In this document: in pieces, positions 1 to 43,808 of the stretch
Numbering within the stretch: the stretch's first letter is position 1
Layout: each line of letters starts with the position of its first letter
Assembly (NCBI GenBank): GCA_046563655.1
Contig: CM102289.1
Span: 6,448,001 to 6,512,000, forward strand
Source of the DNA: Yuukianura sp. NJ FZ-2021
Taxonomy: Eukaryota
Direction of reading: 5' to 3'
Length of the DNA stretch: 64,000 nucleotides
Program-made: the position numbers and the translations under genes
The notes under the pieces: generated by a model
Databases searched by the model: none
Told to the model about the DNA's origin: nothing
What the model saw: the letters and a program-made list of their open reading frames with translations, nothing else

Positions 1-1029
1 CAGCTCCATGTTCTCGAAATCAAGGCAAGGAGTGGCGGGAAAATGATAGTTCCGCATCCCGTGCCCATCATTGCCAGACCGTTGGCCAGCGGGAGCCACT
101 TGTCAAAGTACATTCCAAGGATAATCACGGAAGGCTGAAACATCATACCAAAACCTAAGCCACTGATCCCACCGAAACATGCTACGGTGGCCCAAATATT
201 CGGTTTCCCTCGTGAAGCGAGCCATGACAGAAATATTCCGAGTGAAGCTAAAAGCGATCCGGAAACTGCAACTTTTCTAAATCCAAACTTGTCCACTAGT
301 ACAGAAATGAATGGCCCTAAAAATTTAAAAATAAACTAAAACCAAACTTTGTTCAATTTCAAAACAGAAAGTTTTTTTCATTGGCTCACCAGCTACCAGC
401 GTCACGCAAAATAAAACAGAGGAAATGAGACCGTACATTGCCACTGTAATTTCGTATACCGGAGCTGGAACAACACAAATTGAAATCAATTACAAAGTCA
501 ATTTTTAAAATTTTTGTTGTTGTTTTTTAAAAACAAATCTTAAAAACAAATCAAATTAAAAATAAATGAGTGTTTTACCTGCTGGAGTGCAATTTCCTCG
601 GCAAGGACTTGTCGTGTTGACAATTCCGCTTGCCTTTCTGATATCCTCCATCAATGCACTTTGACTTACACTAATTCCATCCAAAACGAAATTTGAAAGA
701 AACGCGGCAAAAACAATGACCCAACCGTAGCCTCCATCCTGAATTTCACAATGTAAAATGCGTTAAACCACTTTTGCTTAACTTTTTGTAGTCCTTACTG
801 GAGCATTTGTCAACAATTTTTCTTTTTTGTGAATCAGTGGTTCCTCTTCCGAATCTTCATCGTCCGCCGAAAGTGCGGGAACGATTTCATCGCTCGTGAT
901 TGTCGTAAAACTGCTTGAGGCAGGTTGTCTTATGGGTGGTCGTGGCGGTAGAGCACTACTCGGCATCGGACCTCCCTCTTCTTCAATTACTGGAAACGCG
1001 TCACCAGGCGGAACTGACAAATGCTTCAT
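1..1029 (-). CDS. Monocarboxylate transporter (SLC16/MCT family, MFS), 5' part; runs off the window start
   Basis: Splicing exon 1029-799 to an acceptor before 738 gives the MCT N-terminal signature P|DGGYGWVIVFAAFLSNFVLDG. Later exons encode AGPFISVLVDKFGFRKVA, FGGISGLGFGMMFQPSVIILGMYFDKWLPLANGLAMMGTGCG. Introns are GT-AG. Confidence 0.9.
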
Positions 1030-1292
1030 TTTTTGTTAAAAAACTATATAAACTGCACCAAAATAATTTTTATCGCCCAAAACCAGCAAGCGTTTGTTGA
1101 CCTCAAGGCTGAGGCGTAGTAAAATATCAAGAAAACCAAGTGAAATAAACTTGGATTGATTAAGATGTTTCAGTGAAGACTTTTTGTCAAGAAGTATTTT
1201 TGAAGATGTTCGTTTCAAAATAGCTGATGATTGCAAAGAGTGATGATTTGGAGTGCAGATAGCCCCTTGGACTCATTTTGTGTATATGTCTC

Positions 1293-2000: not shown

Positions 2001-4189
2001 TCAAACAAGATTTCCAACTGGTTGTTTACCGGTTTCATCTTCGTCTGGATTGTCGTGGTTCATTGCTTTGTTTTCTCTACCTACGACATTGACAGGCCGT
2101 TGAGTTCGCAAAATTTCTTGCATTTTTGGACTTTGAAAAGTCGGTGGTACATTGTGTACTTGGCGCTTTTTCGCTTCATTTTGTTTTGCCGAATGAAATT
2201 TATTTCGTGTTTGAATTTTGAGTAGCAGCCAAGTTATAATTTTGAATACCAAAAAAATTGCAAGCAATATGATCATCCACTTTGTGTAGTCAATGTTTGC
2301 GTAATCATAAAATTCAAGAACGTCGTTTCCAGAAAAGCTGCAAGTTTCAGTTCCATTTTTGCTTGGAATGATACATGCGCATTGCCCACTTTTTTCATCT
2401 TTACAAGAAAACGTAAGTCCTTCCATTTCATTTGTAACTAGAATTTCATAAACGTATTTCAGAAAATCAATTTGGTGGAAAGTGTAACGCCAAAAACCGG
2501 GAATATTTTTCTTTTGTACAACATAACCTTCAACGACCATCCAAAGTCCATTTGTAAATGCGCACACTGCAAGAGCAGCAACAAAAATTGGAATTGCAAC
2601 TGAAATCAAAACTGTTTGGGCTTCAGCAACCATCAGCGATATAAACAGAAGGCTTGCAAAAGTGCAAAATTTTTCTGTCGTTTCTTGTAGGCCCATAGTG
2701 AAATACGCTACACCTGAAAATGTCATTGTGATAATGAATATAAACGGAATTGAAACAATTAAATTCGAAATCACGTAAGATTCAACTCCGTAGAGTCCAT
2801 TTGCCCTTTCGCGCATAAAAACAAGCCGTTCTTCCAGAAAACCGGGAATTCCCGCCACGGACATAAAAGTCATAAAGCTAACTCCAAAGAACAGAGCGCT
2901 TAGTCGATCATTGACAGTAGTTTGACCTGTACCCATTCGAAACCATGTAGTACCCATGAGAATTCCAAGTGCAATGTACATTGCAACACGGATCCAATAG
3001 GCCAATGGATTCTTGAAAGCGTTAACAAAAGTCCGGGATGTCAGAATTGTCGTTTGGCGTAAAAATCCATTTCCACGTTGAAGAGGTTTAGGTTTTCCTC
3101 CGTAAGGCGGGAAGTTATGATTTTCTAAAACTTCAGCCAAAATGAACTTGTGTTCATCTGATCGTTCAAAAGCGCTAATCAGCGTCTGAATACGTTTGTG
3201 GCCTTCTTTTGGATCAGAATCAAAGTCGACTGAAATCAATTTTAAGTAAACGTCGGCTGGATTGGCGTGAACTGGAACTGGAAATCCAATAAATTCAAAA
3301 TATGGAATTGCCTCTTCACGGTCACCGTAGTAAATTGTTTTCCCTTTAGATAGAAGAAGAATGTGTGTGAAAAGTTCGAAAGTCGTTGAACTCGGTTGAT
3401 GAATTGTTGTGAGGACGGTAATGTTGTGCTTTTTTGCCAAAGTACATAAGCTGGAAATCATAGCTTCCGCTGCAACCGAGTCCAGTCCCGATGTGGGTTC
3501 ATCTAAAAGTCAAGAAAGGAAACGGTGAAAGCATCTCTAAGATTCTCAAAAAAATTTCAAATTAAAAATTTAAAAAGAGCCAAAAAATGTCGGAAAATGT
3601 TGATTTCTTTACCGAGAAATAAAATTCCAGTTTCAAGTCCAACGACCTGCGACGCAACCGAAACGCGTCGAACTTCTCCGCCCGAACATCCTCTGCGTAG
3701 CGGTGACCCAATAATCGTGTTCTTGACTTTGACCAATCCAAATTCGTTCAGAAGATTTTTAACAATTGCAAGTTTGTTTGCCTTGGGCGTATTGCTAGGC
3801 AAATTGAAATCCGCGGCGTACATCAGCGTTTCAAATACCGTAAGACTTCCAAAAAGAGCATCCTCTTGCTGGCAGTACCGCGAAACATGTTTCACTGGTA
3901 TCTCCGTCGCGCCATTAATTTGAATTGTTCCTGTAACATGCCTTGGATCAACTCTTCCCGCCAAAACGTTTAGGAATGACGTTTTGCCTGATCCGGAAGG
4001 TCCGAGAATTCCTACGATGAATCCCGGATAAGCAATACCGTTGAGGCCACCAAGAATTTCTTTGTCGTAACCTGCAGAATCTGGGACTTCGTAGCTCAAA
4101 TTTGTCCAGGAAATGTTGTAGGCAGCAATTGCAGGATCTCGAGGCAGAGTTGCGAGATTTTCTGTGTCGAGTCCATTGTAGTTCTCCAT
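2001..4189 (-). CDS. ABCG half-transporter (NBD-TMD), ~692 aa, two coding exons (4189-3613, 3502-2001)
   Basis: Walker A GPSGSGKT, Q-loop YCQQED, signature CSGGEVRRVSVA, Walker B ILFL|DEPTSGLD split by a 110-nt GT-AG intron, H-loop TIHQP, and an ABC2-type membrane domain with FLEERLVFMRERANGLY. Confidence 0.95.
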
Positions 4190-4754
4190 TGTGTACACAA
4201 CTACGATTGTTTCTCTGGTGGATTCCTGAAGTAAACAAGCTCTGAAATTGTAAAGGGTGCCAACTTATTGTTAATTTAGTACAGGTACCAAGAAACTAAT
4301 TAATTCTGAAATAAAAACTAGAGTTCCAGGGACATCAAGTTCTGGTCGATAAAGATTGCAATGCTAACCACATCCACGACTCATCTTTTACAGCAAATTC
4401 AATTCACCAAAAAAAAACTCGTTTTTGAAAGAAAAAATTAGGAAACCAAACAGATATAGAATGTTGATTATTGGTGTCTAACCTTCAAATTTTAAGTGAC
4501 TATCAAAATTTCTTTGTTTTGCACAAAACAGTTCACAAAATAGGCACCTTTTAAGTTATATGACAAGTATTTCCAAATTTTTTCCTAAAAAATCAAACAT
4601 GATACATTTTCAGTTGCATAGTTGATTTTCTGGACACAGTTTAACATTTTATTATATTCCCTCCTTTATTGGAAGGATCGCCATTTAGCTTATTTACATA
4701 CATTTTTTTAAATATAGTTAAAATGAATTTTAAAATTTCAAAAAACCAAATTTT

Positions 4755-7700
4755 TCAAAGGTCATCCACGTAGTCCGAGTCGACATTCGAACTTGAACTG
4801 ATGTACCCTGAGCAATCTGACGACCTATGACTTCCGCCGAATCTACACTCCTGCCTTACATGTAAATCTTCTGCCACGATTTGATCTGTCAATAGATGAC
4901 GCTCGTTCGTCCAAACCGTATTCAAGATTTGGTCCATTACACTTCCCTGCAAAGTTTCTGATTGGATGCGCTTGATACTTTTTGGTTTGAAGTTAGTTTT
5001 TCGAACGTCAAAAATTCGCGCTGATTTTATATGGGGATTCGCAGTGTTATGAAGAAATGCATTAGCTTCATAAGGCATTAGGAACCAGCGCAGTTTCTCA
5101 GCTTCTGGCGGAATGGCACTGTGACCTGCATCACTCAGGTCAAGCGGTTTCGTTCTTCTGATGATATCTGCTGCAACATTTAGGCATTCCTGAAGTGATG
5201 GAGGTGTGACATGTTTTGAGTCTGAAGTTTCAAAAGTCAAGCCATGTCCGTCAAAATTGCAATTGCTCAGTGACTTCGCTGGCGAAATCTACAAAAGTTA
5301 CGTCCAAATCTACAAGATCTACCAAGAAATTTTTGAATTTTTTAAATTTTGACTACTAACAGTAGATGCTCCTGTAAAAGTGAATGAAGCTGATTTGACA
5401 TTGCACGTGTAGAATGGCAAAAGTTTCCATCCATGAGTCGCTATAACGGCGACTGCTTCAATCGTGTAGTCAACTTCATCAAAGCTAGCATGATATGGAA
5501 ATGACAGGCGCGTAAATCCGGGTTTAAATATCATCAACCCATCTCGGTTGTCGGCACAAGGCACCCTTTAATTCAAAATTATGAAAAAGTGAAGTAATTT
5601 CCAAAACTAGTCTAATAACCGGTAAAAAAAAGTAGTTTGTTAATTACCTTGATTTTGCAAAAATTGTTTCATAATCCAGTGCCAATTGGTCATTAACTCG
5701 AAGCAGAATTTGGGCATACGGACCTGCACACATACAACCTCCTCGAGTTTGAATTCCAAATAAGTCATTCAAGACAGACGCCACAAAGTTGTGATGTAAG
5801 TAGTAGCCCTAGAAAATTTTTTTGTAACAATTCTTGGAAATTTCTTGAATTCTTGGAAAAAAACCAACTACCTGGAACTGGTAATACTTCAAATTTTTTT
5901 TAGACTTACACTTTCAGGATGCTCAATCATAAACGAGACAATTGGAACACGAGGATTATTCGTATCTCCCAAAATAACTAAATTTGGAATATTTTCCCAG
6001 GCTCGAAATGCTCTCCTATAATTAAAAATTTGATTTACTTTATGTTAATTTTTATGTAAAAATGTTAACTTCAGAACACTTACTTTACAAAATTAGCTTC
6101 TCGCGCTACAATCGTTTCCTCTCCGATGGACATTTTTAGCTTCATTACCAAACCAAGCCGAATATTTTCCACAATACTTGGAGTTCCGCCTTCTTCTCTT
6201 TCTACAATGTCCTAAATGTTAAAATCATTTTAAAAATATTTTTTTGATTGCTAAAAAACCAAAATTTCTACACGTGTCAAATATTTTTTTTACATTGACG
6301 TAGTGATGTACGTGACTTGTCACAAGATCTACGGTTCCACCACCTTGGCCATGGGGAACAGCGTTTTTGAAAACCTGTTTCTTCGCAATTAGAACACCTA
6401 ATTGATCAAGTTTATTTGAAAAATTAGTTTCAAATTCAAATTTTATGTAACAAACAGCTTCTGTGGAAATTTTACCCGTCGTTTGTGGACCGCCCATGAA
6501 CTTGTGTCCTGAAAAGTAGATAGCGTCCTTTTCCGCCATTTTTGTTAGCGTCGAGTTTTTCAATTTTGGATTCATGCTGATCTTGACATGCGGAGCTGCC
6601 GCAGCATAGTCAAAGAAAGCCAATCCATTATATTTGTGCATCAAAATTGTAAGCGCGACATCATCCGACACGATTCCAGTGACATTGGAAGTGGCGGAAA
6701 AGCAGCCAATCAGATTTGCAAAAGCGCGACTTTTAAAAAATTTTCGCGTTTCTTTCAATTTTGATTCCAGAAATTTTATGTCCACTTGTCCATATTTGTT
6801 GACTGGAACGTTCACGATCTGATAAACAGATTTGAATAGTTATAAACTTGTATACCGATATAAAAATTTGATAACAATTTCGCGCCTAGAATTCACAAAA
6901 AAAAACCTTGGCTCCGGCTTCTCTCCACGGTAGAATGTTGGAATGATGTTCAAATGGACCCACAAAAACAATTGTTCTAGTACTGGAATTGATGTCATTG
7001 CACATGACATGGTGAATTAGTTTGTGAACGCAACTTGTAGTTCCCGATCCATGAAAAATTACGACGTCGTCACTTCCAGCTCCAGTTGCCTTGCGCACAT
7101 ACTCCCTTGCCTCCTCTCTGCCAAATTTAATTTCTTTTTTTGAATTTTCTCAAAAGTCAAAATTGTGAAAAAAAAAGTTTTATGTAGTATTTTCATACCT
7201 ATACTTTGTAGTTTGAACGGAAGTGAAGGAAGAGACAGTGTGAGTGTTGGCGTAGTACGGAAGCACATTTTTTTGAATGAAGTCTTCGATACATTTAATC
7301 GACTTTCCTGATGCAGTATGATCAAGGTAAATCACTGTAGCCAAAGCGGAAATTTTAAATTAGAAATTGGCAAATTCTGAAAAATCAAAATGAATTTTAG
7401 CTTACACCGACGAAGGCCGAACGGTCCGTCGTAAACTGCATCTTTTCCAATCACCGTTCTGTCCACCATATTCACAATTTCAGCAGAAGCAGAAATAGTT
7501 TCTTGCAATGCTGACGTGGACGCTGAAAACTTAGACCAGCTTTGTTTTTTAGGCAAGCTTTGATTCGGCGTTTCAAGAAATTTTGAACAACCGGGTTGGG
7601 AAACTTTGTTGTCACGGCTGTCCACACCGGAATCATTCGGAACAGTTATCCTGAATGGCGTAGGTACAGCTAGATAGTTGTCGTCTTGATTGAGATACAA

Positions 7701-13156: not shown

Positions 13157-16100
13157 TTATTGAGCATCGCTGTCACTTGTTGTATCGTTTCCAGTTCCAT
13201 TCTTGTCAGCTAAAATTCAAAAAATTGGTTTTAATTTTTACCAAAGTTTCTGTCGTAAAACGCAAACTACAAACGAAAAGTCAAAATTTTGAAAATTTTA
13301 TTTGTTTTTTATGCATACCTTTTTTGCCTCCTTGGTAAGCGTGTCTTCTTAGTCTATCATATAAATCTTCTTTGTTTCCGTAAATGCTAGCGTTGGAACG
13401 GGCGAGGCTATTGAGCTGGCCGTTCCCGAATCCTTCTAAAAGAAAGTTCAGTAAAATGAAAATTAGTTTTTTGAAAAAGGTATTGAGTTTGGAAAAAAAT
13501 AGTTGCTTTGAACTTACTGACCTTTCATGTATGTCTCATTGTAGTAGTTTGGCATGTCCCAACCGTCTTCTTCGTCGTCATAGTAGTGGGCATAGGTTGA
13601 GTGGTGGGAGGGGGCAATGCTTTCAGCATATGGAGCGCCGCCATTTTGTGCTCCGTAGTAGAAATTTACTTGCGATCCACCGGTGGGATCTGGAATGGTG
13701 GATCCGGCTAGAAGCTTCTTTGGTTCACGTCGTTTAGACGACCTAGATCAAAATTTCAAAATTTTGAAATTCAAAGCTGGTTCAAGTTTGGTTTTCTGCA
13801 TGTATGTTTTAGAAAGTCTGTTAGTAATAAAGTTATACCTGACACAAATCATCCAGATAAGCAGCACTATGAGTAGGATGAGCATAACTCCTCCAGCGAT
13901 TCCGCCAGCGATGTAAGCAAAATCTGATTTTTCTTTGCATTGTTGTCCTACAAAGCTACCAATACACTCACAGAACGGACTGTCTTTCTTGTCCTTGTGA
14001 CAGGTTCCTTCGTTGAAGCAGAAACCTTCGCACAAATCTGAAAAAAATTCAAAATTATGATTTAAAACATAATTCAAAATTATGGTTTAATTCAAATTTG
14101 TTTTCAAAAAGTTCTTACCTGTGCAAACAGTTCCCGATCCAGTAAATCCTGGTTTGCATCTGCAGACAAGGTCATTTGACAGTGGATCAACTAGACAGTT
14201 TGCGTTTTTGTCACACAATGGCGTTACACCATCGACGTTGCATGGGTCAGAGCAGTCTTCAATTTTGGTCTGGGAAAATTCAAAAACAAGTTAGTAAACG
14301 TGTAATATATAAAAACTTAGAATACGCTTTTTCAAATTTAAATTTTGACAATACCGCTCCGGCAACACTTGACGGCGTATCGGATGGACAAGCTCTGCAA
14401 GACGTTTGTTGATCGTCTGGTTGAAACGTTCCTTTTTCACACAGTTGACAACGGTTGGAAGTTACATTCAAATAGGAACCTAAACAAAGCAAGACAAGAT
14501 TTTTTAAAAGTTGTTTTTTGAAAACGGTTTTGAAACTTTTGTAATTCAAAAAAGTTCGAACCTGCTGTACAGATTGGCAAAGTGCAGTCATCCGACGAAA
14601 CAGAACCGACTCCCTGCGTGGTTCGTCCCAACGGGCAAGTGACGCATGCTGGATTGGTACCTTGAGTTCGATAAGTTCCGCGTTTGCATTGGACACAGAT
14701 GCCTTCGGGGCTCAGTTGTTCCCCACTGGGACATTCGTCACGACATTCCAGTTCCGAAACAGCTTCAACGGTACGCGTCGTTTTACCGAGTCCGCACAAC
14801 CGGCAACTGAATTGTCCCTCATCCGGTTGGTACTGTCCATAACCACAACTCTTGCAAAGTTCCGCTCCTTCGTCAAAGTACTTTCCAGGACTGCATCGTT
14901 GTTTACATTCTTTTGGTGATTTGGCACCCAAAATCTTCGTAACTCCCGCCTTGTCCACGATAACCGGACAAGGAACACAAGTCAGCTGACCAGTTTGACT
15001 TTGGTATTTTCCAAGAGGACAGACATCACAAGTTCCATTGATAGAGTTGTAGTATGATCCAGCAGCACATGGAACACAATCGGTTCCAATGACGACGTGG
15101 CCAGGGGAACATGCGTAGTCTGGCACCAAGCGTAAGCTGGATGGATCCAACGCCGTGTGTGGTAGGACATCACGGACGTCAAATGCATCTTTCTCAAGAA
15201 TCAGAGTTTGGAGTAGTCGCTGAACGTTTGTGCGTTCGTTAGTGTTAACGTTGATGACGGGATCGGATTGGGCGGGGAAACTGATTGAGACGTCATAGAC
15301 GTCTTCAGTGTCAGAGTCACGTTTGACGCGTAGATTTCTGCCTTTCTTGTTACAGTTGACGCCGATGTTGAGGTCTTGACAATCAGAATTTTCTTTAGCC
15401 TTTGATGCACAGAATCGCCAGTCTTGATTGAGTTTTGCAATTGCCATTTTGATTCGTTCTTTCAAAACTCCTTGGCCTGCAGCGTTGCAAAGTCCGGGGC
15501 TTGGGAATTGCAAGTTGACTTTGAAGACGCGCTGAGCTGGTCTGGAAGCTGAAAGTTAAATTTTGAATTAGTTTTTTGAAAAATTTTTACATTAACTTAC
15601 GTTAATTTTTGTAAATTGAGAAAGGAAATTTTACCTGTGCAAGATGGATACACCAGAGGGCGCTCAATGTCTGCACTTGGATGCCAAAATCCTTCAGCTC
15701 CGCAAGAATAAAATTTGGAAACTGGTTGAGAAAATTTGAGTCCTTGGTGACAGTTGATTTCACAAGACTTGAAATGGCCGCCCGGACCCCATCCGTTACA
15801 GTCTTGAGTGCCACCATCAGGTTCTGGAAGCGCTGGACAAATTTCGGAGAGAACGTAGACTTTGAATTTACATTGGGCACTGTTTCCAGCTTGATCGTAA
15901 GCGACATAGGCAATGTCGTAGTTGCCCCACAGCAGTGTCTGGCCTGGTCTAAATCCTTGCCGTTCTTCAATCCTAACAACGCCAACGTTGTCTGTAAATG
16001 CCGGTTCATCCCACGTGACCGTTGCAGATCCGTTCTTTGTGATGACCCACATGCTACCTGGACAGTGAGCTACAACTGGTGGAACTTTATCCATGTTCAT

Positions 16101-19100
16101 CACGTCACACCGAGTTCCAGAAAGTCCTGGTGGACATACACGCTCTCCACAGACTGACGGAACTACCCGATCAACTCCGCCTGAAATCCGGTCATATCCA
16201 TTCCATGGTAAAATGAGGCCAATGTAAATTACCGATTCGGATCGACACCCGCGAACTTGCTTTTGAATTTCTTTTTGAAGATCTAGTGGGCGATTCCAAA
16301 CTTGAACTCGGCTTAAAGATCCAATAAAACCGGAGTCTTGTGGAGCTCTGCCGGATTCTGTCGCTGGAGCTCCGAGTGAAATCCAACCGAATTCGGGAAA
16401 GTCTTTGCCGGATCCATAATTTTGTGCTTTGCCAGCAATGAGACCGTCGGTAACAAGAACAAGGGAGGAATTTTCTTTGTCGTAGATCAATGTTACATGA
16501 TGCCATTGGGCGTCATTGACTGGAGCGTAGTCTCGGAATGGTAAGTATACTTCTGGAACGTCTTCAAATAGAGACACGAGCATGCCGGCTGAGTGAGCTT
16601 GAATTGCAAGGCGACGCCCTCTAGTGGAAATTCCGGAGTTTACGACATAGTAGTTGAGGAATGTACCGGTATCGTCGTGATGTGTAAACCGAACCCAAGC
16701 GCTGAGTGAAAACCCGGTAAAGTCTTTCAAATTCAAACTGAATGGAATTGCCTGCTGGGCACTACCAGTACCTTCTTCGTCAGTAAAAACGAGGTCGTAA
16801 TCGACTTGAATTGCTGCAAAACGATCAAGTAGCAAAGTTAATTTTGAAAATTGCTTCAAAATTTCTTCAAAAACATATGTTGAAAATAAAATTAACTTAC
16901 TTTTGCGACAATCTTCTCCGGTTAAGTTAAATGGACATTTACAGTAAAATCCGTCAGTAAGATCCACGCAAGTTGCAGTAGGTGGACAACTATTTGGTTT
17001 GCAGTTTGGCACGGTATCTTCGCAGTATCTTCCGCGGAAGCCTTCCAAACATTTGCACGTAAATCCAGGACCGTTGTCAATGCACTGTGCTCCATTTTTG
17101 CAAATTCCTTCTGCGCATGCATCGAATTCATATTGACATCCAATTCCAGTGTAGTCAACAGGACAAGTACAGTTGAGGCCAGATCCAAAGTCTTTGCAAG
17201 TTCCAGTATGCATGCACGGGTCTCCAACGCAGCGATTTGGAGTCGTTTCACACTGTTTCCCGTCAGTACCGGACGGACAGACGCAGAAGTAGTCTTGGAA
17301 GAGGTTGATACACTCGGCACTGTTTTTGCATGGAGTGGACTCACAGAAGCCGATGTCCGTTCCGCAAGTTTTTCCTGTCCAACCAGGTTGACATCGACAA
17401 GTAAAACTGTTGACACCGTCAACGCAAGTTCCACCGTTCAAGCACTCTACTTGTTCACATTCGTTGATGTTCACTTCACAGGCAGTTCCAGAGTAACCTT
17501 TGACAAAAAAAAAATGTTGACAAAAATAGTTTCAAATTTTCAAAGAAAAAATGAACTTTTTCAAAAACCTACCCGGTCGACATTGACATTCAAATTTGTT
17601 GTCGAGGTCAACACAGGTTGCTGTTCCTTCTGATGAGCAAGGATTGCTCAGACATTCGTCAATTTCAGCTTCACATTGAATTCCTGTATGGAAAGGTTTT
17701 TTCTTTCAGCATATGATCAACTTTTAAAAATAATTTTGTTCAAAATATTTTGTTAAATGTAAGATATTTTGAATTATTAAACTTACCAACAAAACCAGGC
17801 CGGCAAGTACACTCAAAGCCATTAAACAGGTCTGTGCATGTACCGCCATTTTGACCTTGAAAAAAGTTTGAATTCAAGTTCATACTTTAAAATTTTGAAA
17901 AATGTAAATATTTATTTTGAAGTTTTTTTTTCTCAAACTTACATGGGTGACTGGCACAGTCGTCAATTCGATGTTGACAATTTTTTCCAGTGAATTCAGG
18001 TTCACAAACACACTTGTAGTCGCCCACTTCATCCACACATTCTCCATCATTTTCACAAGGTTCTCCACTGCATTCGTTAATATTTTGGTCACAGTTTGGC
18101 CCTGACCATCCCTTGTCACAAACACATTCGTAGTCAAACAGTCTATCAATGCAAAGACCATGTCGACATGGCTCTGAAGCACACAGGTCAACCTTCGTTT
18201 GACATCTTTTGCCACTGAAACCCCTAGGGCAAGCACAGCTAAAATCGTTGACCAAGTCGGTACAATTGGAGTTGAGCAGACAAGGGAGTTCTGCGCAGTC
18301 GTCAATGTTGTTTTCACAAAGTGGTCCATCCCATCCCGCTTGACATTGGCATCGAAACCGACCTTGTTGAAGTGGAACACATTGGGCATTGTTTTCACAT
18401 GGATTTCCAGCAATGGTGCATGGGTTAACAGTAACGTCACAGTCAGTTCCAGTGTAGCCGTTTTTGCACAGGCAAGTATGGTTTCCAATACCAGGTTCCG
18501 TTTTACACATGGCATTTTCTGGACAAGTATCGTTTCGACAGTTGGATTCTTGATCTTGACAGTTGATTCCGCTGTAGCCTGGTGCGCAGACGCATGAATA
18601 TCCTTGTGGTTCATCGAGACAGCTTGCTCCGTTGTAACAAGGTTGACTTTGACATTCGTCAATGTCCGTTTCACAGAAGGCTCCAGTGAACCCTGCTGGA
18701 CAGAAGCACATTGCCCGATGACCTTGAGGAACACAGAGGCCGCCATTTTGACAGTAGTCGTCACTGCATGGAATTGCTCGACATTCTTCTTTCGAAGCTG
18801 CTCCGGGTTTCGTAGTCGTTGATTCGCTGGGACACTCCAGGCACTTCGTCATGCCTTCTTTGGTTTGAAAAAATCCGGCAGGGCATGGTGCACATGGAGA
18901 TAAGCCAGTCGGAGAATAGAATCCTGGTTGACATTTCATTCGGCAGTACTCGGGTCCTGGTGCTGCTGGTTGGTATGTAAATGTTTGTGGTGGACATGAT
19001 TGACATTCCTTGAACCCATCAGGAGGTGGACCACCACTGTATGAATTTCGTGGACATTCCAGGCAAGGAACCAACCCAGTTGGAGAATAAGTACCGAAAC

Positions 19101-22100
19101 CGCAAACCGGTATACAGTCGTCAACCGACTTGGAAGCTTGTTCTCTAGTGTAAGTACCGGGCGGACATCGTGAGCATGCGCCTTGCCGAGCTCGGCTCTG
19201 GTAAAATCCTCTTGGACATGTTGTACATTGTTTTTCACCTTCAGTAGCAAAAGTTCCGGCGGGACAGTGCAAGCATCTTGGTACGCTTGACGTTTCGGTA
19301 TTCAGAACTTCTCCGGTACCGCAAGTAAAACCTCGTCCAATCTTTGAAGTTTGAGCGCGGAGCGGTGGACAAGAGTTACCAAGGGAGTTGACATTCAAAA
19401 TAGGGTCAAGGACCTCTGAAGATTGGGGTACTGACAGGTCAAAGATCAAGTTAAGCGTTGACCCACAGAGATCGTAAACCTGATTTTGACGTACAGTTGG
19501 CGCCACTTGGAGGACAAAAGTCATTTGAACCATGTTTTCTTCAATCAGCTGTGGCCGGGTATCCACAAAAGTGACATTCATGTTGACATTGACGGCGGAA
19601 CATTGGTGAGATAAGATTGGACTCAAAGCTGGTTGTGACTTCCTGAAGTGTTCGGTATACTGGGTTAAGCAAGAGGGTGGTACAGCTCCGTTGGCACGGT
19701 ATCGCACGACAGCATTGACATGGTACCGCGCTATTTCGGTATCTTCTGATACGCAGTCCGGAACAACTCGAGATGGTGACCAAGTTCTTGACCGCCTGTG
19801 ACATTTGAAGCTCTTCACCTTTTCTCCATCAGTGAATCGGTATCCTTTGGCACAAGTAGCGGCACAATCAATTCCATCAGGACTGGAATCGCAATGGAAT
19901 CGGCCATGCGCAGGGGGTGCCAATTCCCAGTTACTACAAGCTAACGGTACAATGCTAACTTGGAAGTTGCAGCTAGCTTGATTTCCATGTTTATCTGTTG
20001 CAACTACGGTAACATTTTCAAAACCGCCAACAGGAATGATTGAACTTTCTGGAATGTAGGCAATCGTGACTGGTCCAGATGCATCGGATACGTTGATGGC
20101 ACGGCGTGTTTCGTTGAAGAATACTTGGTGACTGGGCTGTCGATCGACGAGGTCAACTTCATAGCTGAGAGGGCAGCTAAGTCTTGGCGGTGTGTCGTCT
20201 GGAATTGTAATGTTGATGTGGCAAATGGCAACGTTGCCGTCAAAGTCAAACGCCAAGTACTCGACTACAACATCTTCAAAAACGGTAAATGGCATTTTGA
20301 ATCCGGCGGGTCTGATTTCCATACGAGCTACTGTGCCGGAGTTGTCAACTGCGACCGGTTCCGGAAAGTTTACCGGTTCGAGTCCATTTGGTCCTCTTTG
20401 CACAACGACGTGTTGGTCGGGACAGTTTTCAAAAACTGGCGGTTCGTTATCTAGAAACACAAAGAAAATTTAAATTATGATTCATTTTTCTTTAAAAAAT
20501 GTTGCAGCGCATGCTTACCGACGCAAACTGGATAACCCAAATCCCATCCAAGTTGAATTTGTTCTTCCCGCTCATCTTCACATCCGAGCAATTCAAATTT
20601 GAGACAAGGATTCTCCAAGTAGTTGACAATTCCAAGGATAACGAAACGAGCTTGTACGGATTGGGGCAAAGTGATCATAGCCAACTCTCCATAATTTCCG
20701 GGTTCTCGTGTTGTCAAATTGAAATTTGGAAAGTAGACGACAAAATTTTCATTTTCATGTTGTTTATAAAAGAATCGAATTTCAGTTGGTCTTCCCACGA
20801 CGTCATTTGTAATCACTCCCTTCACGAGAATTGCTTTCACGCGATTGATTTTTCCAAGATCAACTGTCACGTAAGTAAACGGTTCTTGAAGACCACACCA
20901 TCCAGTGGCGGAATTCAACCGAATATTCTTGCCTTCATAGTTGGATCTAAAAAATTTTCAAATGTCAATACAAAGTTTGTTTTTGGTTGATTTCCAAAAT
21001 TTTGAAATTTACCGCTCAGTTGTAACATTGATGGCTCCATCGGAAATGATTCCAGACGTAAGTCCGAGTGGTTTGATGACTTTACACTCAGCGTCTCTGA
21101 CGCACGTGATTGGATATGGATTGATCGGAATGTATCCGGGACGTTCGCATTCAAAAATTACTTCAGAGCTCTAAAAATTTTCAAAAATTATTTGAAAATT
21201 TCCAAATTGGAATAAATTTTAATCTAATCTTAAGTGTATTTCGTTTTACTTGTTCATAGGTACTGGAAATTTGAATTCCGTCTGGCGGGCGACTAGGATC
21301 TTCACAAACTGGTCCTTCGCATCGTAGGTTTCCGAAGTCCCATACACCATCTTCGCGACATCTTTGTTTTGAAAACAGAATAAAACATGTTCAAACATTA
21401 CAGTTAGGTTGAATTAAGTTAAAGTTAGGTGTAACTCTACTCACCTGACGACATTGTCGCTCTTTGACGACTGGCCAGCCAATCGAAACGTGTCTTGACA
21501 TCCGAAGAAGAACGACGACTGGAAGAAAGTGTCACTGAAACGACCGTATTCAGCTCCAGGCGTTTCAACTGGAAATCCACAATCGACTTTTGGACATTCT
21601 GGAGCCACACCGGACAACCAGTAGTCTGGAAATTCCGGTTTAGGATCATACACACACTGACGAAACGGTGCAGCTATGGATGACCTCAGAGGTCGTCCCT
21701 GTTCTGCGCATGTGAAGGTAACATTTTCTTGAAATCCAATCAAAAAGTCATTTTCGCGGGGTCGATTCACTTTAAGTCCTTCCGTGGGTTCATCCTGGAG
21801 AGGTACACACTTGGCAGCTAGAAAGTTTAGAAAAAAAAAAACTCAAATTTTTGAAAAGATTCGAAAATTTTTAAGTCAACAATCTTACGTTGACATTCCG
21901 GAACCGTTCCGTTCCAAACTCCATTCGAAGTACACAAGAGTCCATAGTTTCCAGCAATGACGTAGCCAAAGTTACACTGAAATGAAACTTGATCACCAAA
22001 GTGATGCTTGTCTTTGGTTGATAGAAGGAGGCCGTTCATTGGTGCGTTCAGTTTTGGACACATCTTTGGCACGCAAGTTTTGTTGATCCGGTACGTATCG

Positions 22101-25100
22101 CCGTCGAGCAACCCGGTTTCGGTCGGTTCGATATAGAATCCGGCAGTTCCATTTGTGGTAAACAGTTCATGTCCGACGTTACAATAGCAACTGGCTGATC
22201 CTGGGCTGTTGATACACTTGTGATGACAACCGCCATTCTGTAGTAAACATTCGTCGATGTCTCCACATTCCATGCGCGTACAACCCATAAGTTCAAACTG
22301 GAGACATGGAGCGTTCACGTACTCCTCAATGATGAGACGCACGAATCGAGCTTCAATTGGGTTCGGAATTTTGAGTACCGACAATGTCGGATCCACCAGA
22401 ACAAACTGAACAAAACTTCCGTCCGGATTGGTGTATTCTTTGAATAAGTCTGTCAGGTCGTTGGCATACTGTAAAAGAATCAAAATTTTGGAGTTTATTA
22501 AAGAAACTTGAAATTAGTCTGTGTATTTGAGTTACCTGAAGTCGAATTCCTGTGGCATATGAAATTCCACCGCCAACTTTTTGAACTCCCTGCGTTCTGA
22601 AACCGCTTACGATCGTGGGAGCTTTCAAATCAATCAAAACTGTGTTCCCGCCTCTCGCGTGGCTCCCTCCACACCATCCGCCGATTCCGTTGAGCCGGAT
22701 GTTCTAAAATTTTAAGAAAATTTTCAAAATTTTTGACCTTAGAACTTTTTGTTTTTTGAGAATTTACCTCTTTCGGATATCCCTCCTGGAATGATGATAC
22801 TGTAATCGCTTCATCTGGAATTCCGCCACTACTTAGCCCAAGATCCTGATCCGGTTTGCACGCCATTGAAGCCGAAAAGCCCGTACGACATTTGCAGTAA
22901 AAACTGCCCGGCATGTTGACACATTCGGTTGAAGCGAGGTCACATTGGGATGAAGCACATTCGTCAATGTCTTCACATCGTGGGACATCAGTAAATTCTT
23001 GTTCGGCTCCACAAGTGATGATGTTGTGTCCGAGAAGTCTAAATCCACGGTGACACTGCACACGCGCCTCGTCATCAAAGAAAAATTCACGGTCGCTTTC
23101 CACCACAAATCCATTTTTGATAGTCGGAATCACGTGACATTGTTTACCTAAATTCAAATCCACCAAATTGCATTCAAATTGCTTTCTGTGCAGAAGAAAA
23201 TGAAATAAATTTTGAATAAACAGCTTACGAGAACATGATGGAATCTCTCCAGACCAAGTTCCATTGCTCATGCAAAGTAAAGTTGGATGTCCGGTACGAA
23301 CATAACCGTTTTCACAATCAAACCGAACAATTGTGCCGTAACTTCTGCCACCGCCACTGAGAATGGTTTGTTTAGCATTTGGAAGTTCTGGAAGTGGTGG
23401 GCATTGGGAAGCCAAACAAACCGGTAACTTTTCCCATTTGCCGGAAGCAGTACATGAAATAAGTTCGGTGGCTTTGCCAGACGGAAACCCGAATCCGGCA
23501 TAACATTGGTACTTGGCCACTCCGAGAAATGTAACATTGGTGGAATCAATTGCAAATCCATTTGTGATTTGTGGAACCGGACCACAGTAGACTTCTTGAC
23601 AATTCGGAATGTACGTCACTGACCATTCTCCGCCTGGCTGACATTCGGTGACGATTTTCTGTTGACCTGTGGCAAACTCTGACCCGGATGGACATGTCAA
23701 GGTGACGACCGTTCCGAATGAAATGTCTCTGCTACTTGCCATGGCTCCTTTGCCTGGTCTCAAAACGGGGCAATCTGAACCAAAAACAAAGAAATTTCAA
23801 TTTTCAGAAAAAATTTAAGTTTTGGTAAATATTATTGTAGGTGTAAAATTTTTACCAGACGAAAAAATTGCTCGCCATCCTGAGCGGGTGCGTAGAGAAT
23901 CAGTTGTAAATTTGACCGTCATTTCTCCAGATTCAGCCGTTAGAGTCAATTTTGGTACAACGCGTCCCGTAAATCCATTTCCGGCATGTAGGCGTAGACT
24001 ATCCGTATTTGGACCGTCATGAACCTAATTCAAAAATGGACCAATTTTTTTCAATTACAAAAATTTACAATTGAAATTTAATTTAAATTTGCGCGCGCAT
24101 GATTTCACACCCTCCAACGTGCTTCTAATTACCAAGTGACTAGTAACAGGGAGTGTAAAAATAATTAACGAGAAATCATGCGTAGTTCGTCATTCCTATT
24201 GTTGGACATGAGGAATTGGGTCATTGAACTTGAAGTTTATAGCAAAGCGAGTGGCCATTGCAGTAGATGGGCATGACGAGTGGCCCCTGGGCCAATGGGA
24301 GGCGAGGAATGCTGCCATTGGAAGATGAGTTATCAATCGACGAATTAATTAGTATTCAACACTCGTTCCGAGTCTAAACATTCCTTTGTCCCACCTAAAC
24401 GCATCTACGGGTGACTTGGACTTCATGCATGCAGGTTGTGATGGAATGGTTGGGAATTCGAAATTGAAAGAGGGAGGGAAATTTAAATTTGAATTTTCTA
24501 AGGAGTGCGGGCATTATTTCATACTTGAATGGTCATTGGTCACAGGATATGCAGGAAGTGATACTTTTGGCAAAGCACAACAACATTCAAGTGGTGGTCT
24601 GCAATTCCATGCACTCTGAGAAAAGTAAAATTTACATTTTTCCTTTGAAATTTTTTAAAAGTCAGCTCTGGTACAAACAAAAAATTCTTCTTTTTCATTC
24701 TCACTTTCGGGTTTCCAAATTCTGAGATTTTGCTTTTAGTTTTAATTAAAACTGGGCACTTTTTGTTGTTTTTCGTTATAATTCAATTAAACCTGTATGC
24801 AAAACGCCTACAGGTGAGTCTACTCCCTCATCCAATCAATAAACTCAAAAAAGTTAACGGGATTTGGCGGCAACGCCAAAACGGTGTAGAATAAATTTTT
24901 CTCCTTCCCTTTTCTAACTGTTCTTCTAATTGATGGAGATTCAACAAGGAATCAGGTCCGACGTGCCAAAAAAATTAATAAACACGAAAATTTTGTCAAA
25001 AAAGGCAAAAAATTCTTTCTGAGTTGTTGTCTATTCATTACTCACTGGCTGCAGTGAAAATGCCAATTCTTGACAAGTGGGAAATTCGAAATTACTAAAA

Positions 25101-28100
25101 TTTGCTAACATTCAATACCAAATTCTGGCATTCTTTTCCTCTGAACTTTGTTAAACCCAGTTATTAAAAATTTTCAAAATTTAGATACTGCCGCCACTTT
25201 TACATAGGTTATTAAGTACCAATAATAATATAATATATAAAATTTAGTTTGCATTAGCTGATTTTAGAAATTTGTACACAAAAGTAACATCAAACTCGTT
25301 TTTGAAAAAAAAAACCAACGTTTTGGTTTTGAATTTTGAACCTAATTTAAAAAAAAAAGTATTCGAAACTTACTTGAACAAAGTCGCTTTCGTCAACGTC
25401 AAAATTCGTAAAGCGGAGAGATAGAGGACCTCCTTTTGGACGCTTGATGATATAAGTACAATCAGTATTTGACGGGTATTGACCCAATCCAAAGGCCGGT
25501 GAGGTCAATGACCCATTTGAGGCAGAAATGACTTGTTCACATCCTGAAATTTCAAAAAGTTATCCTTTTTTCTAAAAATTTTTTACTCTTTTTACCTTGA
25601 TAGAATTTCAATTGGAATCCGGGTGACCCTCCACTTCCAGATGACGTAAAGTACAAGTACACTTTGCTCTGTGTACTCGTGACATACATTGGATTTTCAT
25701 TCAACAGGCCTGTAAGTGTTGCCAATTTTGGGGATGCCGGTTTGTCACCGTCACGGATTACCAAACTGTCTCTGGGCGACATCATTCCAATATTTTCGAC
25801 CTATTTTAAAGACAGATGCAAAAGAATAGTTAGCGGCAAATTCAAATTTTAATGACAACGTTTGACACTGTCAAATGGTTGTTGTTATTTTTAGAAGTGG
25901 GCCAAATCTTACCTTGATCGTAACGAGTTTTCCTGGTGGAGCGTCAATTACATACACGCACTCTAGTCCTCCCGGGTAGCTGTTCGGGTATCCCGGGGAA
26001 GACAAGACTTGACTATGCGCAGTAGCACGCAGTTTTCCACCGCATGTCTGCGGTTCCGTTTTCCAAGTGGCACGAAAGCCCTTCTTTTCCACTGAAGCGT
26101 CAGATCGGAATTTGACAATCATAAAATTAGACGCAGCCGTGAACACTGCAGAGGAATTGAGTCGCCCCGACAGTGTTGCTGTGCTCACAGCAGCCGATTC
26201 TGTTCTTGCTCCCGCCAAAATTTGAACTGTGTCAAATCCCTTCTCAGTTTCAAATTCCGAAAACTGAAAAACGGTCCAAATTCATTAAAAAAACCTCCGA
26301 ATTTTCAAATTTTCGACCACGTGACCTGACTTGACATAGTTTAATATGTAATGTCAAAGTTCAACTAACCTGAAGCACAATGCTGTGACCTTCGGGGGCT
26401 TCCAGAGTCCATTTGCAATCAGATAGAGATGGATAGCGTTGCGGGAAAGCCGGACTTTCAATGAATGCTCCGACCGAAGTTTTATGAAATCGGCACAAGT
26501 CGGGACAGTCGAGTTCGTCTGAAAAATCTCCGCAGTCGTCTTGTCTATCACACTTGAAGGCCGAATTGATACATTTTCCATTTGAACACAAAAATGTTCC
26601 CGCGGGACATGCTGGAGCTCGGCATAAAAACGGCATCAGTGTTTCGCATGTCGTCAGTTCCCATGACTGCAGTCGGTTTTCTCCCGTTGACGCTTGAACG
26701 CATCTTCCTAACTTCGTATTCGGCTGATCCTCGGCCCAAAATCCTGGATTTAGAATTAAAAGTCATCAATTAATCATACTTTTGTATTAACTTTTTGTTG
26801 ACTAATTTTCACTTTCCTGTTTTACTAACCTACAATTTCAAATTTTTTCTTTTTTGCTCAAAATTTACATCATTGAACAAGTGAGGTTTGTTAAGCTCTC
26901 ACTTGCGTACAAAAGTTTTGTTTTTAATGGGGGTGACAAGGTGAAAAGTGTAAAATGCATTTCAACTACAATTTTTCTATGAACATCGTAAGGAGTAGTA
27001 AAACAATAATAAGGCTCTGCAGAAGAAAAATTTCTCTTGCAGTTGGACTTGGAATATTGTTTTTGACCTCCAATTGAGCACCAATTAAGCTCACTTCATC
27101 CAAATATTCCGGATTTGTCACTTTTACTTTGGCCTCTTTCTGACAAAATAACATTTGAGTTTTCGACGAGAAGTTGTCAAAAGTTGCCGACTTTTGTATT
27201 TGAAGAATTGTAAACATGTTCAACTGTGTAGTGTGGTCAGATGTGTCCTTAAGTCATTGCAAGGCTATAAGGGAAAGTCTTGTCAACGACCACACGATAT
27301 TCACTTCACGGCTTGTCATTTGTCAATTTACCTCAATTTCACTTTTCATGGAAAAATTAAACATGTTGCACACATTCAAAATATTTTTTTTGGTGTCTGC
27401 GACAACTCGTCGTTAAATTTAAATGTCGACGCATGACTTGATTTTTATGATAATTTCTCATCTTTTGTCACAATTTTTTTTCTGCGCAAGACGTTTTGAT
27501 TACAAATTGACTACTTGATCATTTTAAGCACCAATTTTATGATTAGTAATTTGAAAACGTAGGGAATAAGAAAAAATACGTTGGTAAAAAAATACAAAAA
27601 GAAAATACTTTCCTTGCTAAATAAAATTTTCCTCTGATTTTGGAAACTTTGCGATTGTTTGATGTGGAAAGTGGCGGAAATTGGAAGAATTTTTGCATAA
27701 ATTGTGGGAAATTTGGAAAATGTTGAATGAGCTTGTATGAAATTTGGGACAAATGTGATGTAATATGAAATTATGACTAAGAAGAAAAGTGGCACGAAAT
27801 TTGAAAAGTCCAAGAGGTCATCATCATACTGACCTGCAAATTGGGAGAGGAGTGACCCCGAGGGGGAGTCAAGAGTGTTTGTTCGAAGGTCATCGAGTGT
27901 GTTGTAGCCCAACCAGAAATTGGGATCGCCATGTGAAAACCTCCGAGCTAGTGACACACTGTAGTTATGGGATGACCACGAATCAACTTCTACCAGCTCC
28001 GAACCATACCTGAAATTTCAAAAAAAAATTCAAAATTTCAATTTTCAAAAAAAAATCACAAATCAGAACATAGCAGAGACATTACAGAAATGAAGCAGTA

Positions 28101-39861: not shown

Positions 39862-41114
39862 CTAACGTAGTTGCTTGAGCATAAGTGCATTGCTAATAGT
39901 GTAGTTCGCAATTGCTGCAATGGATTTTCGTACAGCACTTTTGTCCAGAAAGTAGAACGACCCACAACGAATTCGACATTGTCTCAAGGAGCTTACACTT
40001 TTCTGGATAAATTTACGTTCCATGTCGGTGGTGTATCGGTTAGGTTTCACATCGCGAATGACTTTTCCCGCCCTTTCGAACAGTGTCATGCCAGAGTTTG
40101 CAATGGCAATCCAGAATATGGCCATTGTGAGAGAGACGACGCAAATGACACAGGCAATGAGCGTCGTTTTCGTAGTAATAAACAACGCGAACCCTAATGA
40201 ACTTAGGATAACAATGAGCATATTGGATGCCGTTAACAGTATTTCATAACATTCACTTTGCATTTCTGAAAGAATATACACTACCCGGTAACATCTAATT
40301 CTCTCCATTGGTGACGTAGACTTTGAGCGTCGTAGTTGTAGCAAAACCGCCGAAGTAATGCAGACAAACGGAAGAATAATCATAGAAACTTTGAGCCATT
40401 TAACAAAAGTAAGAGCGACCAATCCGGTTACAGCAATGTATATTACTATGAACAATGTTACTAAAATCGGTGTTAGGACTGTGCAGGAAAAATGTTGACA
40501 AAAAGAGCGACCAGAACAAGAAAGTAATGCGTAGAGGTCGTTGTAGAAAAGTGTGGTGGAAATTATGACCAATGGAACGCAGTATTTTCCAAGTTTACAA
40601 AAGGCGCTAGACACTGAGCCAACGACATCAACTTCATGACTTTCCGGTATTAAGTAGATTCCTAAAATTTTAAACCAAAATTTTAATACTTCCAAACTTC
40701 CTTTCCTTTCCAAATTTCAGCCTTCATTATTTTAAAAGTTAAAAGTTGAAAGAAGTTACCCTTTCGATGCTTTCCAATTTGGAGAAAAGTGTTGACAAGT
40801 TGTAAAGTTTTAGCTTTGTTTTTTACCGTGTCAATATCTATTACGATGTCCGCAAATAAAACTCCACATCCCCAAAGAATAAACAGAGTAAAAAGGTGGT
40901 TGAGTTGGTAGTAAATATTTAATATGGCCGCCAAAATTGTGCAGAAAATACTTACTGCATCAAACAGAAGTACAACTGTAGATCCAATTGCGTAGCGGCG
41001 AGAGCTGTCAAGCCCAAAATGTTCAGAAGAGCTTGATACTAAAGGACTCTGATAAGTACGATGAGATTCCCTTTGCGAATCAAACAGCAGTTTCCGACTT
41101 ACTTCTGACAACAT
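39862..41114 (-). CDS. Putative 7TM chemoreceptor (gustatory/odorant receptor superfamily-like), ~384 aa, two exons (41114-40760, 40661-39862)
   Basis: A phase-1 98-nt GT-AG intron joins two hydrophobic ORFs in frame. Multiple TM segments; C-terminus RIRCGSFYFLDKSAVRKSIAAIANYTISNALM resembles the GR/OR TM7 region. Confidence 0.7.
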
Positions 41115-42347: not shown

Positions 42348-43808
42348 TTATAATTTTGTAGGTGGTCTTCTAAAAGTAAATTTGAGAATAACAAGTAAAG
42401 CTACAGTAATTATTGTCGTACTAAATAAGTTAACATAAATTAAAATTATTGAATTTTGCTCAATTTGTTCTCCAATCACAAGAGGGAAAATGGATGCCAA
42501 CAGAGATCCACTGACGAGCATCGTCGATCCAACTGCGTTTGTAAATTCAAGATGGCGCTCAATATATGCGCAGAAACTAGGGTTGACTGTTGAATATCCA
42601 ATACCGAGCAAAACGACTCCACTCCATAAGCCTACAACCGAACCTCCAAAAGGAATTAAAATACCGCAGGATACAAAAAGTACAAGGATGTTGAAAACCA
42701 AAATGAAAAGTGGCGGGATTTTCATATTTGCGAAAATTCCCAGTCCCCTGAAAATGGCGTAGCTGCCCGTGAGAGCTGTCATGATCTGAGCTCCTTCTGC
42801 TGGTGACATTTGTAGCTCTCCATATTGAGCAAACGTTGAAATGAACTGTATTGATACCATTTCCATTCCTTGGTAGAATCCTAGAAAAATGGCTGATAGG
42901 ACAATGAGTGTGATTTTGAGGTACTTGGGGTCAACGACCTTCATGAGACTTTGATTTTCCTTGAGGGCTTCAATATTGCCTAGTTTTTCTGGAAAGTCGA
43001 CAGGAGGCGCTGGTGTGTAGCGATGAAACACGAAAAAGTAGAGTTGCGTAGTAGCTGCCATTGTGCTAAAAGTTCCAGCAATTGTAAATGGAATCCAGAA
43101 AACTTCGTTTTGAACAGGCGCAGGCGTAGTTCCACCGCTGGTGTCTTCTGGACTTGCTGGAGTGAGAAATGGACCAAGCAGGATGGACGGAACGAGTGAC
43201 CCAACGGCGTAGAAGAAATGTTGACCTTGAATAAATGGACCTGTGTTGGGTTGCCACATTTCGATGACCCACACATTTTGAGAGGCATTGTAGATACCAT
43301 TGCAGAGTCCTGCAAATGTTGCGAGTGCGTAGAGCGTGTAAATCGTAGGACAAATTGGCGCCAAAAACAAACATACTGAAATTCCGAGTAATGCAACGAA
43401 CGCTCCGAGTTGACGATTGAAAAAATTGTAGATAAAACTTGCTAAAAAATTGAAAAAAAAAGTTGGTTTCAGAAAAGTGTTCTAAAAGATGGAAATATTT
43501 TTTTGAAGAATATCTTACTCAGCAAAGCTCCAACCATGTAACTGGAAGTTAAGATTGTAAATACAACAGCAACTGCGTCCACATCAACTCCATACTTGAT
43601 TTGGAAATCTGTAACGGAGGGAGAGTACATGTTCATGCCCATCGCCTATAAAAGAAAACCATTTTTTTTTACAAAATGACTAATGTGAATAAAAAGAAGC
43701 AGTTTTTGAAATATTTAAACTTACAAGACAAATGTTTCCAAAATATATGCCGGCAGTAGTGCCAATTTTTTGGCGCTTTGTAAATACTGCAATTGACTTC
43801 TCATTCAT
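42348..43808 (-). CDS. MFS transporter, MFSD4 / sodium-dependent glucose transporter 1-like, copy 1 (three exons)
   Basis: Starts MNEKSIAVFTKRQKIGTTAGIYFGNICL; contains WVIEMWQPNTGPFIQGQHFFYAVGSLVP and many TM helices; two short introns. Confidence 0.88.

Follow-up and report, generated by a model that had tools for sequence, protein, structure and literature searches.

The window analysed here, a stretch of 64,000 nucleotides from the genome of Yuukianura sp., carries an ABCG half-transporter gene that most probably (we put the probability at about 0.86) derives from one old transfer, from a Rhizophydiales chytrid to a springtail ancestor, and has been kept as a domesticated gene. On the sequences compared, the transfer is old and is common to Folsomia candida and at least one further animal, rather than private to the window genome. 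After the transfer, the gene would have become a single-copy chromosomal gene maintained by purifying selection. An earlier, sequence-only reading of this stretch had already suggested a fungal origin followed by domestication. BLASTP and trees bear this out and narrow the donor, which would be a Rhizophydiales chytrid related to the Terramycetaceae/Globomycetaceae. The same reading had also allowed for another soil eukaryote as donor and had noted a likeness to plant WBC11-like proteins; the listed matches, the trees and the taxonomy put a Rhizophydiales chytrid in the donor's place, not a plant or a generic soil eukaryote.

The gene and the features of the encoded protein are laid out in the window as follows.

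4189-2001, minus strand: ABCG gene, two exons, one 110-nt intron, 692 aa plus stop
3613..4189 (577 nt), minus strand: exon 1, encoding the N-terminus and the nucleotide-binding domain (NBD) to Walker B; residues 1-192 and the first base of Asp193
3503..3612 (110 nt), minus strand: GT-AG intron, GTAAAG...TTTTAG, 27% GC, phase 1, within the Walker-B Asp codon
2001..3502, minus strand: exon 2, encoding the catalytic Glu194, D-loop, H-loop, transmembrane domain (TMD), extracellular loop, C-terminal tail and stop
3980..4003, minus strand: Walker A, GPSGSGKT, residues 63-70, canonical
3674..3688, minus strand: ABC signature, CSGGE, residues 168-172
3399..3401, minus strand: H-loop, His227 in TTIHQP, canonical
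2427..3059, minus strand: ABC2_membrane domain, residues 341-551
2520..2531, minus strand: end of TM5, EGYV, residues 517-520, aligned with ABCG2 S552-G553-L554-L555
2340..2405, minus strand: Cys-rich extracellular loop, C559, C567, C569 and C580, with an N-G-T sequon at 575
2004..2204, minus strand: C-terminal tail, about 67 aa

On translation, the spliced frame of 692 aa plus stop has zero internal stops. Pfam places ABC_tran (PF00005, E 1.2e-16) in exon 1 and both ABC2_membrane (PF01061, E 2e-35) and ABC2_membrane_7 (PF19055) in exon 2. One NBD ahead of one TMD is the order of an ABCG half-transporter, and NBD-before-TMD is given as the layout of this family in the sections of PMC2848647 drawn on here. 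Walker A, Q-loop, signature, the Walker B Asp-Glu pair, D-loop and H-loop are all intact and canonical, and the Cys at position 1 of the CSGGE signature is common to the window protein and its Rhizophydiales-type relatives. The PF01061 match spans 210 of 211 profile positions; a simple hydropathy scan, set against the six transmembrane helices expected of the family, returns about five stretches, with TM1 missed at the scan cut-off. All four loop cysteines are invariant across an 11-row alignment.

Splicing, translation and Pfam thus agree with what had been read from the letters of 2001-4189, a 692-aa ABCG half-transporter gene with one coding intron, and the motifs quoted for it are present at residues 174, 359, 402, 556 and 567, C580 being the last cysteine of the loop. 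The scarcity of introns had been presented as unusual for this stretch. The single coding intron stands, but the unusualness does not, since host genes also have long single open frames (1089 aa at 53882-57151 and 620 aa in locus L114). The former frame, on the plus strand, consists of Cys-rich units, presumably chitin-binding-like, around long Glu/Thr-rich tandem repeats.

At the 5' side of the ABCG gene, the open frame continues beyond the ATG through 4190-4264 (minus strand), behind a good-looking acceptor, and the residues encoded there are faintly like the N-termini of the chytrid-type ORFs P0010 and P0044. An extra short upstream exon, or an intron in the 5' UTR, is possible at this position. 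The gene is single-copy: searches of the assembly (98.7 Mb, 22 contigs) with exon 1, exon 2 or PF01061, whose counts are lower bounds, found no second gene of the same clade.

Fungal proteins dominate among the relatives. A protein search with exon 2 scored 7,999 candidates and yielded 837 matches, of which the best 120 are listed. Of these 120, 84 have a named organism (83 fungi and Plasmodiophora), one is labelled Nk52, which we take to be an ichthyosporean and hence a holozoan, and 35 are without an organism name. Neither a named animal nor a land-plant protein is found among the best 120 of 837, and the same holds for Orchesella, though the database includes Orchesella proteins; a single transfer would consequently imply that the gene was lost in places or has a restricted distribution. 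The best named matches among those listed come from Boothiomyces (564 bits), Terramyces and Globomyces, and the solved human and Arabidopsis ABCG structures score 91-138 bits on exon 2, against 564 for Boothiomyces. When 12 of the 35 nameless matches were looked up, one cluster was found to contain F. candida OXA64833.1. Representatives at 50% identity gave 150 matches and no new named animal; eight new ones were looked up, two of which are named (a chytrid and a green alga).

BLASTP with the spliced protein gives a graded series: 864 bits for the metagenome orthologue L003 (64% identity), 765 for F. candida (59%), 743 for Terramyces (59%), 728 for Boothiomyces (61%), 691 for Globomyces (57%) and 478 for Nk52 (43%). 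The best arthropod white among the proteins compared reaches 255 bits (30%), and five native ABCG fragments of the window genome reach 100-189 bits. On this compared set, which is not a full alien index, the non-animal match lies far above the animal one (743 bits for Terramyces vs 255 for white). Among the matches listed, the Rhizophydiales chytrids Terramyces and Boothiomyces are the closest named non-animal relatives. The window genome also encodes a white orthologue, and its best matches are arthropod.

Phylogenetic analysis places the window protein inside chytrid proteins, apart from the white and native ABCG rows. Our main tree comprises 47 rows and 616 columns (LG+G4, with UFBoot/SH-aLRT supports). 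Its rows, like those of a quick 78-row tree, were chosen from several hundred proteins and are without named animal ABCG2, ABCG5/8 or land-plant ABCG11; named ABCG2 and ABCG5/8 were compared with the window protein by score only. In the 47-row tree, the window protein groups with P0014 and L003 (95/92), and F. candida joins these three (100/96). The clade is then extended by P0003 and L002 (93/92), by Boothiomyces and Terramyces (91/83), and by Globomyces and P0009 (100/99). A Rhizophydiales-type clade of 19 rows (100/100) lies inside a 36-row clade (100/98), in which every named member except F. candida is fungal. Six named chytrids belong to the 19-row clade; NCBI taxonomy assigns five of them to Rhizophydiales and one, Entophlyctis helioformis, to Chytridiales. 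A quick PMSF tree gives the same nesting, as does the 78-row tree, in which all five native ABCG fragments fall outside.

Topology tests (AU, 20,000 replicates, run without a mixture model on constrained trees from searches of about 20-30 iterations) weigh this placement against others. A grouping with metazoan ABCGs, set beforehand as the outcome contrary to a transfer, is rejected when the window clade is constrained with three whites and two native ABCG fragments (dL 130, p 2.9e-9). A position outside a monophyletic chytrid group is rejected as well (dL 73, p 1.7e-5); the conservative SH test keeps the tree in which the window clade is sister to all chytrids of the clade (p 0.056). One could envision an ancient opisthokont ABCG clade that was inherited vertically, lost in nearly all animals and retained in springtails. 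Nk52, at 43% identity within the wider clade, means that the clade may predate the fungus/animal split. We consider vertical descent very improbable: it is opposed by the roughly 60% identity to two chytrid genera and the nesting within one chytrid group, and forcing the window clade with Nk52 costs 273 log-likelihood units (p 1e-38; 272 with all six intron-type rows), in addition to the cost of 130 for the animal ABCGs. Passage in the reverse direction, of an animal gene into chytrids, is barely credible. It has nothing in its favour beyond the high similarity, and it is contradicted by the position of the animal sequences, which form a tip inside a clade that spans Chytridiomycota, Glomeromycotina and Dikarya. 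Moreover, F. candida is the only named animal carrier among the best 120 of 837 exon 2 matches and the clusters looked up.

The genomic setting bears on whether the gene belongs to the animal at all. It lies 6.45 Mb into a 10.2-Mb contig, between two direct neighbours that are both multi-exon animal genes; the presence of animal genes in the same stretch had been cited earlier as an argument against contamination.

4755..7532, minus strand: upstream neighbour, multi-exon aminotransferase-V gene, a shortened paralogue of an animal aminotransferase-V/TtcA fusion
1..1035, minus strand: downstream neighbour, multi-exon MFS gene that extends past the window start

We take the downstream gene to be monocarboxylate-transporter-like. 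The best matches of the upstream gene are Orchesella dallaii and O. cincta (58%), above insects and a snail. Together with the arthropod matches of the white orthologue, they make a springtail host likely. The upstream gene corresponds to residues 59-685 of the 1450-aa Orchesella aminotransferase-V/TtcA fusion; the TtcA half is missing, and the SGHK and RGGCxCAG motifs are kept. A full-length paralogue exists at G000:C4:14940660-14947729 (54-57% to Orchesella, 38-50% to eight other relatives), which makes the gene at 4755..7532 a shortened duplicate. On account of this full-length copy, we gave up the idea that the neighbour had lost its TtcA half through insertion of the ABCG gene. A family search with PF01171 gave no match but is insensitive, as the full-length C4 copy escaped it.

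The metagenome contig L003 carries a diverged orthologue of the window ABCG with the same intron, and about 1 kb upstream of it, on the same strand, lies the same aminotransferase-V gene. The exons of the latter (L003:324-1544) match the window neighbour over longer stretches than the C4 copy, and the shortened form seems, from these sequences, to be common to the window and L003. We count L003 as animal from this neighbour gene alone. The F. candida orthologue (OXA64833.1 / XP_021947645.1; 59% identity over 612 aa) is on a 28.5-Mb record. From the mid-contig position and the same neighbour in L003, we conclude that the window gene is physically linked to host genes.

Codon use in the window ABCG is host-like: GC3 is 0.344, against 0.35-0.44 in 11 host exons, and RSCU values correlate with those of host exons at 0.76. 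The gene is also under purifying selection. Between the window gene and L003, pN is 0.23 and pS 0.80 (saturated), and in run X1 all four listed coding differences are synonymous (40 of about 500 difference rows are listed). It is hardly credible, in our view, that the gene is a chytrid contaminant that became joined to animal sequence during assembly. Close chytrid relatives do exist, and no listed contig spans the whole stretch or bridges the ABCG gene and a neighbour. The 28.5-Mb F. candida record, the same gene order in the separately assembled and diverged L003, and the host-like codon use all argue against contamination. So do the contigs of a second study (X5), which cover parts of the ABCG gene and of its neighbours, with none at 3001-3300; run X2 covers 9 of 30 bins, and run X1 may be the assembly's own sample.

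The intron within the Walker-B Asp codon occurs at the same site in L002 and L003, as read from DNA, and in F. candida and P0003, as inferred from read-through ORFs; on translation, the F. candida ORF ends just beyond the Walker-B leucine, running into the intron. All 59 motif-bearing loci among 78 distant fungal-type loci (L004-L081) are without it, and the chytrid-type ORFs P0010, P0044 and P0062, which lie on genomic contigs, read through the site. The sequence-only reading had called this a host-style intron. The GT-AG intron is real; it may or may not have been gained in the host, as L002 and P0003 could be chytrids. Should they be animals, the intron would be a marker of the lineage that was transferred; should they be chytrids, it would have arrived with the gene. 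The fungal origin is unaffected by either history.

The second of these histories can be enlarged into a rival account of the whole: an unsampled, intron-bearing chytrid donor, with L002 and P0003 as members of its group, could have passed on the intron along with the gene, perhaps through repeated or animal-to-animal transfers. L002 and P0003 share the intron, form a pair of their own (99/96) beside the window clade and have root-to-tip lengths that are chytrid-like and shorter than those of the window clade. No gene flanking L002 is diagnostic of its owner, and the lack of Orchesella among the listed exon 2 matches would suit repeated transfer. On the other side, the window protein, L003, P0014 and F. 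candida form one clade and the window and L003 share a neighbour, as fits one transfer; P0010, P0044 and P0062 lack the intron; and the L002 intron ends TTTGCAG, a usual arthropod acceptor. We therefore regard this account as improbable, and retain one old transfer into a springtail ancestor as the preferred reading.

L003 has a second intron of its own, of 55 nt, in TM2 (L003:3850-3904). The frame is uninterrupted there in the window ABCG, F. candida, L002, P0003 and P0014, which suggests, from the sequences, that intron gain went on after the transfer. A native ABCG gene of the window genome has an intron directly after the Walker-B Asp codon (L104:4280-4557, phase 0). Copying of the window intron from a host ABCG is unsupported, as this nearest host intron differs in phase and lies two bases off.

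By analogy with characterised ABCG proteins, the window protein is best read as a working homodimeric, ATP-driven exporter of lipophilic compounds. Two copies would form a plasma-membrane homodimer: both ATP sites of such a pair would be canonical, and the genome searches yielded no close partner. A lipophilic substrate would enter a cavity lined by TM2, where Phe405 aligns with human ABCG2 Phe439. ATP binding would close the two NBDs and drive the substrate out past the TM5 gate, and ATP hydrolysis would reset the pump. We take Phe439 to be the clamp of ABCG2 and L554-L555, with which residues 519-520 align, to be its TM5 gate. ESM Atlas gives an ABCG fold for the F. candida protein.

Several features have changed relative to the closest proteins. 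Y519-V520 stand in the window protein where 14 of 15 close relatives show F-F; Tyr at the first gate position also occurs in other fungi, and Val at the second occurs in no other row. Near-invariant columns are altered at 15 of 194 positions in the window protein, compared with 0 of 186 in Boothiomyces, 4 of 189 in L003 and 10 of 190 in F. candida, so the substrate need not be that of the donor. The C-terminal tail is found neither in the named chytrid proteins nor in F. candida. The tails of the window protein and L003 (L003:4605-4941) align poorly, yet both end in N-L-V; this ending may be a signal for sorting or scaffold binding that the animal acquired. Taken together, the changes in gate, columns and tail may reflect drift or retuning on the animal side, and they make the substrate unreadable from the relatives. 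Arguing from analogy, we would give about even odds to export of lipophilic dietary or microbial toxins and somewhat lower odds to export of the animal's own lipids, sterols or cuticle wax, and would leave a small remainder for other substrates. A fuller scenario, which we offer tentatively and with more doubt than belief, is that one chytrid pump entered the collembolan stem ahead of the divergence of the orders, acquired an intron and a tail specific to the animals, underwent remodelling of its exit gate in the window lineage, and now exports toxins or cuticle lipids beyond the reach of the native ABCGs.

Other transporter genes were seen in the course of these searches. Three ABC genes that stand in tandem on the same contig (G000:C7:6869000-6883000, L105-L107) are weak ABCG-profile matches, as are L108, L109 and L111 elsewhere in the genome, which have an exon pattern in common with the three; all six are probably ABCH genes. 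An intron-poor, divergent native ABCG at G000:C3:7116958-7119246 (L087, L102) shows at most 28% identity to any compared protein; in the tree it falls among the animal rows and has a long branch. Within the window, two similar genes that we take to be MFS-like stand in tandem at 42348-43481 and 44561-45733, and an intron-poor membrane protein at 39862-40716 presumably resembles chemoreceptors. A large multi-exon gene with EGF, CUB and sushi repeats occupies about 13700-28000 on the minus strand and resembles, we presume, arthropod uninflatable.

Fungus-to-springtail transfer is well established, and the window ABCG is one of hundreds of foreign springtail genes. The parts of PMC5490193 used here report 809 foreign genes in F. 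candida, of which 32.8% are fungal and 330 are shared with Orchesella cincta. Those transfers represent the same kind of event, in the same host group and from the same donor kingdom, as the window ABCG. The same parts name Rhizophagus as fungal source and stress carbohydrate enzymes; they contain no mention of a chytrid donor or of an ABC transporter acquired by transfer. Most described springtail transfers from fungi concern enzymes with a loosely assigned donor, whereas here the gene encodes a membrane pump and its donor is placed within one chytrid order. The F. candida copy may already be listed as foreign, either in PMC5490193 or in a compendium of metazoan transfers (PMC13342648). Surveys of F. 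candida ABC transporters count 9-10 ABCG genes, with no remark on foreign origin in the sections of PMC10087712 considered; one of these is probably the orthologue of the window gene. Our literature search, which mostly covered papers outside subscription, found no report of the window gene, and none of a springtail ABCG with a chytrid donor.

The window ABCG adds a foreign member to a family that animals already possess. It has persisted in animals that diverged deeply, and these share its intron and its neighbour. Transfers serve as time-order constraints in dating fungi, according to the portion of PMC12592215 cited here. A chytrid-to-springtail transfer could connect chytrid families, whose dating is poor, with the fossil record of arthropods. 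Given the nesting inside one chytrid order, the Globomycetaceae/Terramycetaceae split would, if the stem-collembolan reading is true, be older than the ancestor of the gene-carrying springtails. F. candida is a standard animal of ecotoxicology, and knock-down in Folsomia could give this fungal clade its first function; no substrate is reported in the papers examined.

Among known systems, human ABCG2, ABCG1 and ABCG5-G8 and Arabidopsis ABCG16 and ABCG25 are likewise reverse-topology half transporters. In every feature compared the window protein is an ABCG, and it would work like the ABCG2/ABCG1 type, but it lies outside the animal white and ABCG1/4 clades. The solved human and Arabidopsis ABCGs belong to different clades, and their substrates are therefore not transferable to the window protein. 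Arabidopsis ABCG11/WBC11 is a cuticular lipid exporter, and its name has been attached by annotators to the relatives in F. candida and Pyronema. With no land-plant protein among the best 120 of 837 exon 2 matches, ABCG11 would belong to the same wider group only as a distant member, if at all, and is not the donor. Fungal ABC-G Groups VI and VII are described, in the sections of PMC2848647 drawn on, as YOL075C-like and Adp1-like, with EGF repeats in the N-terminal part of Adp1; Pfam detects no EGF domain in the window protein. The F. candida protein, whose name 'ABC transporter G family member 11' is an automatic annotation, belongs to the same clade and has the same intron site; it is itself without the tail, and its TM5 gate still has F-F. 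The ABCGs of Boothiomyces sp., Terramyces sp. and Globomyces pollinis-pini match the window protein at 57-61% over about 600 aa and share its CSGG, four-Cys loop and domain order. The window protein differs from these Rhizophydiales ABCGs in its longer branch, its C-terminal tail and its 15 near-invariant changes.
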